In this document: one piece after another, positions 9,001 to 15,000 of the stretch
Layout: each line of letters opens with the position of its first letter
Numbering within the stretch: position 1 is the first letter of the stretch
Assembly: GCA_033723415.1 (NCBI GenBank)
Contig: JAWVXD010000001.1
Location: forward strand, 1 to 64,000
From: Sulfurospirillaceae bacterium
GTDB lineage: Bacteria > Campylobacterota > Campylobacteria > Campylobacterales > Sulfurospirillaceae
Reading direction: 5' to 3'
Length of the DNA stretch: 64,000 bases
Program-made: the position numbers

Positions 9001-12000
9001 TGCGGCATTTTGGTTTTTCATCATGTGGGCATTCTATGAGTCTTTGGTGTGAATACTTTAGCGTTTGTTCGCAGGTCGCGCATAGGTGGTAGTTGATCGT
9101 ACCAAGATCGGTGTCATGATAGGTCAAGATGAGGTGATCTGACTTCTTATCATGACCCGTATGGTTTTTGTCGCAGTAGAGTTGTATGAACTTATGCACG
9201 ACTCTCACGTCGTTTTCAAATTTTTCGGTTTTCATCTCAGTCCTCCTCTTGGTCTCCATTTGTAATCTTTGTCATGTTCAACTTTGGAAAAGAACAATTT
9301 CCCCGAATCCCTCCACGGATCTAGAAGCACGCCTTGATCAAAGCTGCATCCTTTGCAGGTGACGACCAGCACGTTGTGTTCATCCCAGTAGTTACCTATG
9401 TTCGCACCACCGATGTAGTAGTCAAAACTTTTATAATGCTGTTTTTTGACAAAGGAGAGCATATCGTATGCAAACTGCCAGCAAAGTCCTTTTTTTCGCA
9501 AACCGACGTTGACTAAAAAGTTTTGAAACAGCGGTGGCCTGACGAGTTTGTAATCATGCGCAAGTTTTTCTGCATGAATTACAGCTTTGCGTGCCAGATC
9601 TTTTGCTTCGGATTTTTTTACATGAAGTGAGTTTAACATCTTGTTGAGTTTTGACACTTGATGAGCGTTAACTTTTGGAAGATTTGGTTTTGGTGCACAA
9701 CCGCTGAGCAATAAAATTGTAACCAATATGCCGAGATACTTTTTCATAAGCGCTATATTAATAAAATAAGATAAATATATTTTAAATGCAATTAAGTAAA
9801 ACTACAGTATAATCCGTACCTTAATTTACAAAAATTAAATACTATCAAAGGAAAAACATGAAAAGAACATTTCAACCGCACAATACTCCAAAGAAGAGAA
9901 CTCACGGTTTTAGAACTAGAATGAAGACTAAAAATGGAAGAAAAACTATAAATGCAAGACGTGCAAAAGGTAGAAAAAGATTGGCTGCATAGGAAGTTAT
10001 AGGGTACTAAAGAAAACAAAAGAGTTTTCTTACGTATATAATAATGGCAAAAAATGGCACTTTGAAGGTGCCGTGATCTTTTACACGCCTGGTTCTGAAA
10101 AACAAGTAGGTTTTACAGCAAGCAAAAAAGTTGGAAATGCAGTTAAAAGAAATAGAGCAAGAAGAAGACTGAAAGCTCTGTTTCTGGAATTGCAAAAAGA
10201 TTTATCTGTGGGAAGTTACGTATTTGTAGCCAAAGATAAAATCCATAGTTTAGATTATGAATCTCTAAAAAACGGCTTGCTTTGGTCATTTGAACGACTA
10301 AAATGTTTGGAAAAATGAAAAAAATAGCATTATCATTGATATGGTTCTATCAAAAATTTCTTACGCTTTTTAGCTATGGAAGTTGTAGATATTATCCGAC
10401 TTGTTCGCAATATGCTAAAGAGCAGATAATGTTTAATAATTTTTTTAAAGCTCTGTTTTTTTCAGTTTTGAGGATTCTCAGATGCAATCAGCTTTTTGTT
10501 GGCGGTATTGACTATCCTGTGGTTAAGAAGGTTTTTACCAAGACTTCTTTTATAAGAAGCCATAAATCATCTTTTAAAAAAGTATCTTTTTGGTTCATCC
10601 CAAAAGATGAAAAAAGTTTTTATGTTGTAAAATCTTTTAAAAATATTATATAAATATAAAAGGGTTATTTGTGTTAGACAAACTTAGTAATCAAAACAGG
10701 ATCATAATAGCAACAGTTTTATCATTTTTATTTTTTGCTACTTATGATTATTTTTTTATTCCAAAACCGGTCCATAATTTTAATGAGCAAAATAGCTCCA
10801 AAGTTGAGAAAAATGCAACAATAAATTCTTCAAAAGCTCCAGTCGCTGCTGATACAAGCAGTAATGTACCAAGTAAAATCGCCAAAACACCGACAAGTAC
10901 CGTAAAGAATGCAGACAAGATATTGGCTACGGTAAAATCTAAAAATTATGAATTGGAAATAGACAGTTTAGGAAGAATCACTAAGTTTTATCTTAATGAC
11001 AAAAAATACCTCTTGCCTGATGGGCATAGACTACAACTCGTCGATCATAAGCTGAGTTTCTTACCTTTAGAGATAAGATTCAGTGACGAGGCTATAAATA
11101 CGGAAGCATTTGCTACATCTTATAGCACGGATAAATCTGAAGTTGAACTAAAAGACAAACCTGTAAAAATCACTTTGACTCAAGACCTTCCGGGAGTGAA
11201 AGTAAAAAAAGAGCTTACATTTTATAATGACGGGCATTATGACGTAAATGTCGTACTAGATAAAAATAAAGAGTATTTTATAACTCCCGGATATCACCCA
11301 AGTCTTGCGAAAGACCACTATACCTTTCATGGTGCGCTTCTTAAAAAAAGTGACGGCGGTATGGAGATCATTTCCGATGGTGATGCAAAACAACAAACTT
11401 TCAAAGATGTAAAATTTGCAGGAAATGCAGATAAATATTATGCAACGGTTTTATATAATTTCAAAACAGGCATGACAGTAGTCGAAAGTCCTGAAAAAGA
11501 TAAAATACCTGCACTTTATATAAAAGGTACTCAAGATCTAAAATTAAGCGGATATATCGGACCTAAAGAATTTGTGATATTAAATAAAATAAATCCAGGC
11601 TTGACTGACTTGATAGAATATGGATTTTTTACATTTATATCAAAGCCTCTTTTTGTGCTATTATCTATGATCCATTCATACTTAGGAAACTGGGGTTGGG
11701 CTATCGTTGTTCTTACATTCTTGATAAGATTGGTACTGTTCCCTCTTACATATAAGGGTATGGTCTCTATGAACAAGATGAAAATCTTGGCACCGAAGAT
11801 GAAAGAACTCCAAGCAAAATATAAAGGCGACAAACAAAAACTAAATGCCCATATGATGGAACTTTACAAAAAGCACGGCGCAAACCCTATGGGTGGGTGT
11901 CTTCCTATGATCCTTCAGATTCCGGTGTTTTTTGCCATCTACCGCGTACTGCAAAATGCGGTTGAGCTAAAAGGTGCTCCTTGGATCTTTTGGATACATG

Positions 12001-15000
12001 ACCTAGCTGTTATGGATCCGTACTTTATACTTCCGGTTTTAATGGGCTTGTCTATGTTCATCCAACAAAGATTGGCTCCAAATAATTTTACAGACAAAAC
12101 TCAAGAAAAAATTATGAAATTTTTACCTTTGATTTTTACATTTTTCTTTGTTACATTCCCTGCGGGTTTGACACTTTACTGGTTTGTAAGCAACCTGTTC
12201 TCGATAGCACAGCAAACATATGTAAACAAAGCATTTGAAAAGCATAGGGTAGTTGAGGAAAAGGCTACAAAATGATAAAGATAGAAGCAAATACACTACA
12301 AGAAGCATATTTAGACGCGGCAAAAGAATTTAACTGTTCTGTTACTGAGTTGGATATAGAGATTGTACAAAATGCAAATTCCGGCTTTTTGGGTATGTTC
12401 AAAAAAACAGCCATCATAGAAGTTTCAAAAAAAGGCTCCTCTCGTAAAGAGAACAGGGGCCCGAAACAAGAAACGAACACTAGCCCAAGAAGAGAGAAAA
12501 ATTTTGAAAAAAAGAGAAAACAAAAACCAAGAAGAGAAGATAATCGTAAAGAAGAAACAAAAGTAAATAACAACACAACGACTCACAAAAAAGCTCCTGA
12601 AAAACAAATCTCTTCAGAAATTCAAGAGAAGCCAAAACAACCAGAAATCAAAGTTGATATTGATAAAGCAATCAAAACTATAGAAGTTGATATAAACAGA
12701 CTCTTTAAAGAGAGCTGTTTTGAAATAGACAATATAAAAGTGTCTAAATATGATGACGAGACTATATTGATAGAATTTTCAGGAGAAGATGTTGCTCTTC
12801 TAATAGGAAAAGAAGGGTATAGATATAAAGCTCTTTCTTACTTATTGTACAATTGGATAAATATCAAGTATGGTCTAAATATACGCCTTGAAATTGCAGA
12901 GTTTCTAAAAAATCAAGAAGAGATGATAGGAAAGTATTTAGTTCCTGTCATTGAGCGAGTTAGAAACAACGGAAGAGGGCAAACGAAAATCTTAGACGGT
13001 GTTCTTATAAAAATCGCATTAGAAAAGCTCAGGGTAGAATTTCCTGAAAAATATGTCGGTATAAAATCTGGCAGAGAGGGCGGTAGATTTATAGTCATTA
13101 ACGATTTCAACAGGAAAGTCAAATAGACACAATATCCGCGATAGCTACGGCTCATGGTGTAGGCTCTATAGCAGTTGTAAGAGTCAGTGGGCCAAATTCT
13201 CTACACATAGCACAAAAAATTACAAAAAAAGAAAAATTTACTCCTAGATATGCCTCAAAATTAACACTTTACGATGATAGTGGATCTGTTATAGATGAAT
13301 CTATAGTTATATATTTTAAGGGACCAAATTCGTTTACGGCAGAAGATATAGTTGAATTTCAATGTCATGGCGGTATCGTGGTCGCTGATATGATTTTGGA
13401 TGCAGTCATAAAAAACGGTGCTAGATTGGCTGAACCTGGAGAATTTTCAAAAAGAGCATTTTTAAATGGCAAGATCGATCTCACGGAAGCTGAGGCAATA
13501 GCAAAGATCATAGAGACAAAGAGCATAGATGCAGCGAAGATATTGGCACGTCAAATGAGAGGCGAGCTGAAAGAGTTCGTAGAAAAGATCAGAGATGATC
13601 TAGTTGATGTTTTGGCATATGTTGAAGCAAGTATTGATTATGCAGAAGAAGACCTGCCTCAAGATTTACTTCAGCAAATAGAGGCAAAATTAAAAAAATT
13701 AGAAGACTTACTTAAAACCACCTATGATAATTCAAAAAGAAGAGAAGGATTAGTCGAAGGTTTCAGAGTAGCGATAGTCGGTAAACCAAATGTTGGTAAA
13801 AGTTCACTTCTCAATTCACTTTTAAGTTATGATCGAGCTATTATAAGTGACATCGCAGGAACAACAAGAGATACTATAGAAGAAGAGGTCAGGATAGGCA
13901 CTCATCTTATTAAGATCGTAGATACAGCAGGTATACGTGAGTCAAATGATCTAGTAGAAAATATAGGAATAGATCGATCAAAAAAAGCTATAGAGTCATC
14001 AGACATAGTTATAGCACTATTTGACAATTCACGAGAATTTGATGCTGAAGATAGAGTTATCTTGGATATATTGAAAGAGTGTCCAGAAGATAAACATATC
14101 ATACAGGCTCTAAATAAAAAAGACTTGCCTGCAAAGTTTGATATCTCCAATATTGAAGGAGATTTTATAGAAATATCTAGCATTTATGACAATACATTGA
14201 TCTTAGATAAATTAAAAAAATTACTAGATAGTTCATCAAATGATGATTCTATTTTGTTGACTTCAAAGAGACAGATGAGAGCCATAGATATGACTATTGA
14301 AGCTATAGAACAAAGTAGACACGTACTCAATGAGGGTGAATTGGAAATATTTGCATTTCATTTAAACGAGGCAATCGGCAGCATGTCCTCGATCACCACA
14401 AATTTTGACAGAGATGAAATACTTGAAAAGATGTTCGGTAGTTTTTGTTTGGGTAAATAGAAACAATACAAAGAAATTTTTTAAGTATACTTTAGCCATT
14501 TAACGTTTTTTATTCACTTTCCGCACAATTTACAAACACAAATTTTAGATTTCAATTTCACTACATTGAGTGTAAAAAAACTATACATTAAAATTTTTCA
14601 AAAATTAGACGCCAGAAGTTTTGACTAAGAATAAATATGCTAATATTTTATATTTATTATAAGGAAAATATATGCAATTTTTATTTGGAATGATAGTCGG
14701 CTTTGTTATTAGTGCTATTGTAATCTGGAAAATTATGCCAAAAATAATGATCATAAATAAACAAAGTAAGCTAAATTTTGAGGACACAGTCGAAGAAATA
14801 CAGAAGTTGGCAAAAGGTATGGGCTGGAGTGTTCCTTACGTATACAACATGAAGCAGTCATTTGAAAAGGCAGGGAATGAAAATGTAGCAAAAATGCATG
14901 TTATTTCATTGGGCAATGCAGGTCACGCTTATGGAATAGTTAAGCATGACAAGGATAAAAATATCCTCTCTTTTATGCCATATCGTGCAGGAGTATATGA

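Follow-up and report, generated by a model that had tools for sequence, protein, structure and literature searches.

In Escherichia coli, infC and pcnB start at AUU. Translational coupling is known at 4-nt ATGA overlaps of stop and start codons. In Staphylococcus aureus, conserved noncanonical starts have been described for infC (AUA), cvfC1 (AUU), ccpN (AUA), and citZ (AUA); these were measured by retapamulin profiling and reporters, the reporters giving an output of ~10% of that of AUG (PMC13009471). The same paper states IF3 autoregulation. A start-site study in Campylobacter jejuni called peaks at ATG, GTG, and TTG only, so existing data may permit a test of other codons (PMC11955535). A literature search that left out most subscription journals listed no study of noncanonical initiation in Campylobacterales and, judging by titles and abstract openings, nothing on an ATAA/ATAG overlap form among the translational coupling papers found.

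We analyzed a window of 64,000 nucleotides (positions 1 to 64,000 of contig JAWVXD010000001.1, here C1) within the genome (G000) of a Sulfurospirillum-like bacterium. About a dozen housekeeping genes in this bacterium and in many of its relatives very probably initiate at AUA, AUU, AUC, or CUG, and gene finders shorten the encoded proteins because these start codons are rare. The mechanism is known; its spread across the order appears to be unreported.

Noncanonical start codons in the genome

A preliminary description had listed seven genes with odd start codons. A sequence check found all seven codons in place, each without an ATG, GTG, or TTG ahead of the conserved N-terminus (distances below are to the first ATG/GTG/TTG downstream and to the in-frame stop upstream):

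C1:13123, + strand, ATA, mnmE; 85 codons downstream, stop 8 codons upstream
C1:9989, + strand, ATA, candidate start of rnpA (alternative, ATT 9980); 28 codons downstream, stop 6 codons upstream
C3:119482, CTG, mfd; 44 codons downstream, stop 2 codons upstream
C8:48820, ATT, ftsK; 42 codons downstream, stop 28 codons upstream
C5:87157, ATT, ygjP-like gene; 83 codons downstream, stop 5 codons upstream
C4:14099, - strand, ATA, dsbD_2; 23 codons downstream, stop 5 codons upstream
C4:177819, ATA, yqaA; 93 codons downstream, stop 2 codons upstream

Homology, Shine-Dalgarno (SD) placement, codon fixation, and nearby upstream stops support well the reading of these codons as true noncanonical starts. 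Domains need the N-terminal extension, as the profiles for TrmE_N, RNase P, DsbD_2, EamA, Zn_protease, and WaaA all start inside it. An in-frame stop lies two codons upstream of mfd and yqaA in this genome and of ftsK in four loci, leaving almost no alternative start codon.

The claim of at least seven such genes proved conservative. Comparative evidence supports five further genes, which brings the predicted odd-start genes to at least 12 of ~2,300 (~0.5%, a lower bound from a survey inside this order). Four of the five entered through an SD filter, and their SD is thus no independent evidence; the automated screens were filtered after opposite-strand open reading frames (ORFs) had swamped the first versions. 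Candidates at C3:255322, C8:44909, and C5:198847, where the profiles begin past a canonical codon, were dropped or left open, as was a UbiB-like ORF (C4:101006) with a TTG 7 codons on, for which the one relative compared aligns from residue 40. A short ORF ahead of infC was actually the end of the upstream gene.

The rpmH-mnmE operon

Two of the listed starts lie in one operon of the window (all features on the + strand of C1):

9858..9992, ORF that we take to be rpmH (L34) by sequence recognition; its stop TAG (9990-9992) overlaps the candidate rnpA ATA
9966..9970, SD-like AAAGG inside rpmH, 9 nt ahead of ATT 9980
9980..9982, ATT, alternative rnpA start; of 79 junctions sampled order-wide, 69 have ATT/ATC here
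9989..10318, rnpA from ATA 9989 (PF00825), sharing A-TAG with the end of rpmH; no canonical codon until a GTG 28 codons on
10315..10653, ORF, presumably yidD-like from gene order; ATG 10315 and the rnpA stop together form ATGA, an ordinary coupled junction
10671..12275, ORF, presumably yidC-like; GTG start
12272..13126, ORF taken to be jag-like; its start and the end of yidC overlap as ATGA, and its stop is TAG 13124-13126
13112..13115, SD core AGGA within jag, 7 nt ahead of the mnmE ATA
13123..14460, mnmE, 445 amino acids; begins at an ATA that runs into the jag stop (A-TAG)

The operon contains two ATGA and two ATAG junctions. Positions 1 to 117 of the TrmE_N profile align with MnmE residues 3 to 117, and starting at the first canonical codon would cost 85 residues. 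The AGGA ahead of mnmE comes from a rare jag Arg codon, AGG (11% of Arg codons). At rnpA, ATA 9989 has the stop overlap and no SD, the SD of this gene being spaced for ATT 9980; with residues numbered from that ATT, position 3 of TIGR00188 falls on residue 6, so that profile position 1 lands at ATA 9989. None of 79 rpmH-rnpA junctions carries a canonical codon at the rpmH stop overlap.

Public annotations, as the preliminary description had anticipated for translation table 11, already carry some of these starts: an NCBI/nr protein from this contig (P0001) begins with Met at ATA 13123. Coverage is patchy and without comment. P0002, also public, is a 356-amino-acid call of this MnmE and falls 89 residues short; RefSeq WP_041666335.1 and WP_167750605.1 (Sulfurospirillum; proteins only) begin MDT at the homologous place, and all six mnmE loci inspected in genus g4 or among its named relatives have ATA. 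Of 120 matched FtsK entries from the Campylobacter lari group, 118 lack the N-terminus, as do 43 of 120 matched MnmE entries.

Shine-Dalgarno sequences and stop overlaps

An SD at normal spacing precedes six of the seven listed starts, and the seventh, rnpA, has one for its ATT; dusB has none. Scores of ≥10 were likewise obtained for six of the seven, compared with rates of 11.8% at 4,214 internal ATH/CTG codons and 71% at 421 ATG starts. The anti-SD (CCUCCUUU) was read in the out-of-family genome G145 only. The 16S rRNA gene is missing from the G000 assembly.

At five ATA starts the codon shares bases with the upstream stop, giving ATAA or ATAG, the counterpart of ATGA, and mnmE, yqaA, waaA, and the tsaB-like gene combine this 4-nt overlap with an SD within the upstream gene. 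The ftsK, dsbD_2, and eamA starts overlap no stop. Ordinary 4-nt stop/start junctions in G000 comprise 227 ATG, 49 TTG, and 22 GTG. In a genome-wide count of in-frame 4-nt overlaps with a stop, taken at a distance from any canonical codon, an SD precedes 6 of 15 ATA versus 0 of 17 CTA/GTA/TTA codons in G000 (Fisher P = 0.006), and 2 of 11 versus 0 of 15 in G145. The SD core at mnmE covaries with the start codon, being present in 30 of 34 distinct ATA-overlap loci versus 5 of 56 canonical-start loci (kin are not independent). The base ahead of the jag stop is A in the 34 ATA-overlap loci, across seven different last codons. The TA of ATA in these overlaps is itself fixed by the stop codon.

Conservation in the genus, family, and order

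Conservation across the genus, part of the initial account, was borne out for mfd (CTG in 13/13 loci), ftsK (ATT, 13/13), dsbD_2 (ATA 11 and ATC 2 of 13), ygjP (ATT, 9/9), and rnpA (ATA overlapping the rpmH stop, 12/12), and mnmE was indeed mixed across 30 family loci (ATA 15, shifted ATA 2, ATG 11, GTG 2). It failed for yqaA, where just 3 of the 13 genus loci have ATA, 8 having TTG and 2 ATG. Canonical codons at the same position in other lineages, also claimed there, were seen for mfd, yqaA, and part of mnmE and ygjP; the claim does not hold for ftsK, dsbD_2, rnpA, or ygjP in genus g5 (ATA in 12 of 13 loci). The mfd CTG is kept in 14/14 loci of g1 and g2, though CTG makes up 7.9% of Leu codons, and three other genera have TTG (16/16). 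At or beside the same site, orthologues of mnmE, mfd, yqaA, waaA, eamA, dusB, and the tsaB-like gene carry ATG, GTG, or TTG.

Outside the genus, 16 of 17 dsbD_2 loci have ATH and one has ATG. The ftsK start is ATT, ATC, or ATA in all 17 nongenus loci of the family, and thus in 30/30 family loci, as well as in 10 of 16 sampled families, SD-led and alternating among the three codons; a canonical codon lies within ~7 codons in 4 of the 30 loci inside the family and in 7 of the 23 ATH loci outside it. ATT, ATC, and ATA all encode Ile, and conservation by itself could reflect Ile.

Proposed mechanism and alternatives

We consider it probable that these are genuine near-cognate starts decoded by the normal initiator tRNA, in two layouts, with low output, as an old, order-wide habit. 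In the first layout (ftsK, dsbD_2, mfd, eamA, and a Zn-protease gene), a good SD (AAAGGA/AAGGA) 6 to 9 nt ahead would direct ribosomes to ATT, ATA, ATC, or CTG. In the second (mnmE, yqaA, waaA, the tsaB-like gene, and perhaps rnpA), ATA forms a 4-nt overlap with an upstream TAA or TAG, the tail of the upstream gene usually conceals an SD, and a terminating ribosome may restart on the ATA. Initiation would likely be weak, SD guided, and partly coupled, on low-demand genes. The outcome, by analogy with the S. aureus reporters (PMC13009471), would be low output of housekeeping proteins required in few copies, with whatever benefit that might bring. A few starts (ftsK and rnpA) would have been kept for long, whereas most would come and go one gene at a time by single substitutions, for example TTG to CTG or ATG to ATA/ATT.

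A larger claim, compatible with this explanation, is that the whole order tolerates near-cognate starts better than other bacteria do and that these starts, responding to IF3 or initiator-tRNA supply, act as a control point for tRNA maturation and division genes. The ftsK pattern points this way, as do the tRNA-processing genes (rnpA, mnmE, dusB, and tsaB-like; 4 of 12, to which G145 adds an rsmA-like gene) and the lack of AUU at infC across the order. The functional grouping is post hoc, however, and most starts turn over between genera, which fits drift; we regard this reading as rather unlikely. Its full form is similarly doubtful: that Campylobacterales, without AUU-based IF3 feedback, have permissive initiation, with ancient near-cognate starts (ftsK, rnpA, and tRNA-modification genes) acting as a translational throttle through which initiation fidelity is coupled to division and tRNA maturation, including a distinct AUAA/AUAG restart signal.

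Relaxed start proofreading peculiar to the genus or family, through an altered IF3, initiator tRNA, or 16S rRNA, would suit the fixation of the mfd CTG, the subclade gains of odd starts at yqaA, waaA, and dusB (G000, G011, and G014), and an infC start other than AUU. It is nevertheless improbable, and the trait, initially ascribed to the genus, extends over the family and order. The out-of-family G145 carries about as large a set: across 1,073 orthologue pairs, 6 odd starts are private to G000, 5 to G145, and 2 are shared, in a genome-wide comparison with this one outgroup (1.6 of its 1.81 Mb). Within-genus checks were made gene by gene, with bulk sequence of G011 covering 0.3 of 2.38 Mb. The infC gene starts with TTG, as previously noted, and does so in 21/21 parsed loci (of 30) across the order; no AUU or AUA infC start was found among them, and the textbook IF3 feedback loop is thus not apparent. 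IF3 and the initiator tRNA look ordinary in sequence. We rejected an IF3 lesion, as IF3 aligns over its full length with solved IF3s and its only visible oddity, Ile for Met (REI/REM), recurs in 5me0 chain Y; the initiator tRNA is mismatched at C1:A72 and has three G-C pairs in its anticodon stem.

Production of the overlap genes as -1 frameshift fusions with the upstream protein, without initiation of their own, is highly improbable. At the stop of the upstream gene, mnmE and rnpA are both in the -1 frame, and several junctions are A rich, but the 34 mnmE loci show 19 different heptamers, many nonslippery and none conserved; no fusion-length protein occurs among the best 120 MnmE relatives (searched to 779 amino acids; longest listed, 495), and ftsK, dsbD_2, and eamA would be left uncovered. 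Reassignment of AUA to Met, or truncated or mis-sequenced genes, has a negligible chance even with ATA as the commonest odd start, given that internal ATA aligns with Ile in 65% and Met in 2% of cases (n = 7,057), like ATT and ATC, that tilS is present, and that the same odd codons recur across dozens of independent assemblies.

Significance and comparison with known systems

The class of mechanism is already known and the share of genes small. The predicted starts correct the N-termini of conserved proteins in the order, including Campylobacter, and the first hydrophobic helix is missing from most FtsK entries of the C. lari group. An ftsK start shifting among AUU, AUC, and AUA across families, together with the proposed AUA restarts at TAA/TAG overlaps, offers natural cases on the persistence of weak starts.

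Like the S. aureus set, the present starts are conserved AUA and AUU codons following a strong SD on ordinary genes. That set comprises four measured sites, whereas at least 12 are known here as predictions from sequence; CUG, AUC, and stop-overlapping AUA occur here in addition, and infC falls outside the present set and inside the other. E. coli infC and pcnB share the SD-led AUU start on a housekeeping gene, which is translation limiting there; the genes differ, and infC of this order starts at UUG. The ATAA/ATAG junctions share the 4-nt geometry of ATGA coupling, with the difference that a TAA or TAG stop is here joined to an ATA start.

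Probable near-cognate start codons in seven genes

The genome under study, G000, belongs to a Campylobacterales bacterium (2.43 Mb, 17 contigs, with large contigs of about 34-35% GC), and the nearest named relatives of its MnmE are for the most part Sulfurospirillum records. A preliminary description listed seven near-cognate starts with no canonical start (ATG, GTG, or TTG) ahead of the conserved N-terminus:

C1:13123, mnmE, ATA
C1:9989, rnpA, ATA (or ATT at 9980)
C3:119482, mfd, CTG
C8:48820, ftsK, ATT
C5:87157, ygjP-like gene, ATT
C4:14099 (-), dsbD_2, ATA
C4:177819, yqaA, ATA

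All seven were confirmed in the sequence, and each protein reaches its first canonical codon only after 23 to 93 codons. Family-profile matches of MnmE, RnpA, and DsbD_2 start within the N-terminal extensions, and relatives align with the extended Mfd, FtsK, YgjP, and YqaA from residue 1 to 3 (the NCBIfam profile match of Mfd begins at residue 11). The window has the gene order rpmH-rnpA-yidD-yidC-jag-mnmE, in which all names but rnpA and mnmE are our assumption from sequence and gene order.

Start codons of mnmE, mfd, ftsK, dsbD_2, ygjP, and yqaA were tallied in the best 30 loci per gene. For mnmE, these carry ATA (15), shifted ATA (2), ATG (11), or GTG (2); genus g5 accounts for all 13 canonical starts. 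Further ATA loci are found in genera g2, g4, and g6 and in the named Sulfurospirillum cavolei. Two genus members (L005 and L007) retain the ATA/TAA overlap of mnmE, followed by three additional codons. The ftsK codon is ATT, ATC, or ATA (ATH) in all 30 loci (ATT in 23, including 13 from the genus; ATC in 5; ATA in 1; and another ATT from g4), and 4 of them have a canonical codon no more than five codons ahead of it; dsbD_2 has ATH in 29 of 30. Conservation of the codon across the genus, as originally proposed, is borne out for mfd (CTG in 13/13 loci, plus a single g2 locus), ftsK (ATT in 13), and ygjP (ATT in 9/9) but not for yqaA, in which ATA is limited to 3 of 13 genus loci. A canonical codon occupies the same position in other lineages for mfd (TTG there or one codon later in the 16 remaining loci), mnmE in g5, and ygjP in g4 (ATG or TTG in 6/6) but not for ftsK, dsbD_2, or ygjP in g5 (ATA in 12/13).

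The rnpA start was read at 79 distinct rpmH-rnpA junctions spanning the order, and in all of them the 4-nt overlap is free of canonical codons. ATT or ATC stands three codons ahead of the overlap in 69, and ATA stands at the overlap in 32, including 9 of the 10 that lack ATT/ATC; five loci have TTG six codons downstream. The ATT has a Shine-Dalgarno (SD) sequence and is more widely spread than the ATA, which overlaps the rpmH stop and agrees with profile position 1. Both may be used.

Tests against chance

Four observations indicate that these starts are not chance. An SD score of 10 or more accompanies 6 of the 7 listed starts versus 11.8% of internal ATH/CTG codons; CTG represents 7.9% of Leu codons yet is fixed at the mfd start; an SD accompanies the odd codon at mnmE in 30 of 34 odd-start loci versus 5 of 56 others (these genomes are related and not independent, and the p-value is given no weight); and where a stop overlap lies well away from any canonical codon, SDs occur at 6/15 ATA versus 0/17 CTA/GTA/TTA. 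A reassignment of AUA can be set aside, as ATA within genes acts as an Ile codon and the genome has tilS.

Spread across the order

These starts are not a genus peculiarity: G145, from another family, has a similar set at a similar density per megabase. Among 1,073 orthologous pairs (covering 1.6 of G145's 1.81 Mb), six odd starts are in G000 alone, five in G145 alone, and two in both (ftsK and rnpA); an overlap scan added two in G145. The five G145-only genes, with labels assumed from motifs, are rsmA-like (ATC), xseA-like (CTG), flavoprotein (ATA), amidase-like (ATC), and ATPase (ACG). The rsmA/ksgA-like gene (L342) has ATC after AAGGAG, with its first ATG 26 codons later and TTG at this position in G000; the apparent ACG of the ATPase gene (L373) follows GGAG, 57 codons ahead of the first canonical codon. 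In addition, about 100 nt at C3:331255 is common to G000 and G145 (L374), directly upstream of a 70%-identical gene that we take to be metK-like, and is possibly a riboswitch leader.

In an order-wide sample of 50 of 109 matching ftsK loci (30 best and 20 chosen to spread over families), ATH occurs in 9/9 loci of the family and 23/41 others, representing 10 of 16 families. A canonical codon is also close by in 7 of these 23; in the 18 non-ATH loci, it lies within three codons in 16 and is unclear in two.

Screening by comparison with G145 and for intrinsic signals yielded further candidates in G000, of which the first five below were checked in five relatives each:

C3:28284, waaA: ATA in G000 and G011, TTG one codon later in four others, ATG in G145
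C8:11408 (-), eamA: ATT ATA after AAAGGA in 4/6, ATG in the other 2 (40% identity for one of these)
C7:74733 (-), tsaB-like: ATA in 6/6, TTG in G145
C5:107071 (-), dusB: ATC/ATT/ATA in 3, ATG in 3; no SD
C2:165669 (-), Zn-protease: ATA in G000, ATG in G044, unclear in G014; gene not found in three relatives
C11:4991, glycosyltransferase: strong SD, no close relative for comparison
C11:35180/35183 (-), 1,657-aa protein with pectate-lyase-like/NosD-like repeats: strong SD, signal-peptide-like start only if begun at ATA/ATT, no relatives among the loci examined
C17:218, DUF234 ATPase: strong SD, no close relative for comparison

Thus, 12 odd-start genes have comparative support among about 2,300 G000 ORFs of 80 aa or more.

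Initiation machinery and proposed mechanism

No lesion was found in IF3 or the initiator tRNA, both of which look ordinary. Neither tRNA-Ile(GAU) nor 16S rRNA was found in the G000 assembly, probably because the rRNA operons are unassembled; tRNA-Sec is present (C4:76533-76632). All 21 parsed infC loci of the order, including L111 from G000, start with TTG, mostly in a TTGA overlap with the stop of the upstream gene (presumably thrS), and no AUU-type feedback site is apparent in them.

In the simplest account, the normal initiator tRNA would pair with the near-cognate codon, with the SD setting the position, and at ATAA/ATAG overlaps the terminating ribosome would aid initiation. The window has the two kinds of junction in parallel, ATGA (rnpA/yidD and yidC/jag) and ATAG (rpmH/rnpA and jag/mnmE). 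One G-to-A change would convert ATGA to ATAA with the stop retained, which is a plausible path where the genome is AT-rich. Such starts probably yield a fraction of the AUG output, by analogy with Staphylococcus aureus reporters, in which near-cognate starts are described as giving about 10%, and up to 30%, of AUG output (PMC13009471).

Public annotation

As had been anticipated, public annotation carries some of these starts: ATA 13123 gives the initial Met of an NCBI/nr protein from C1 (P0001), and the MnmE of two Sulfurospirillum entries in RefSeq starts at the matching place. In contrast, 43 of 120 MnmE database matches are N-terminally short. FtsK of the relative G089 (L471) has an ATA start after AAAGGA, and its first 170 residues are 68-80% identical to named Campylobacter lari-group proteins. 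Of the 120 C. lari-group matches (P0124-P0243), 118 are missing at least 19 N-terminal residues and the first hydrophobic helix; the two full-length ones are NCBI entries. Annotators have thus picked up some of these starts but overlooked most.

Comparison with known initiation

The observation holds and is broader than first described, with initiation itself predicted from sequence. Escherichia coli starts are given as 83/14/3% AUG/GUG/UUG, and ATA is known as leaky (PMC13515050). A start-site study of Campylobacter jejuni (PMC11955535) called peaks at ATG/GTG/TTG, and the portions of its main text considered here do not mention AUU, AUA, CUG, or ftsK; two other papers (PMC11445065 and PMC11796252) have little bearing on such starts. 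Our literature search on odd starts found nothing for Campylobacterales. The initiation is of a known kind; its order-wide spread and the AUAA/AUAG coupled form are apparently unreported, with frequency compared within the order alone.
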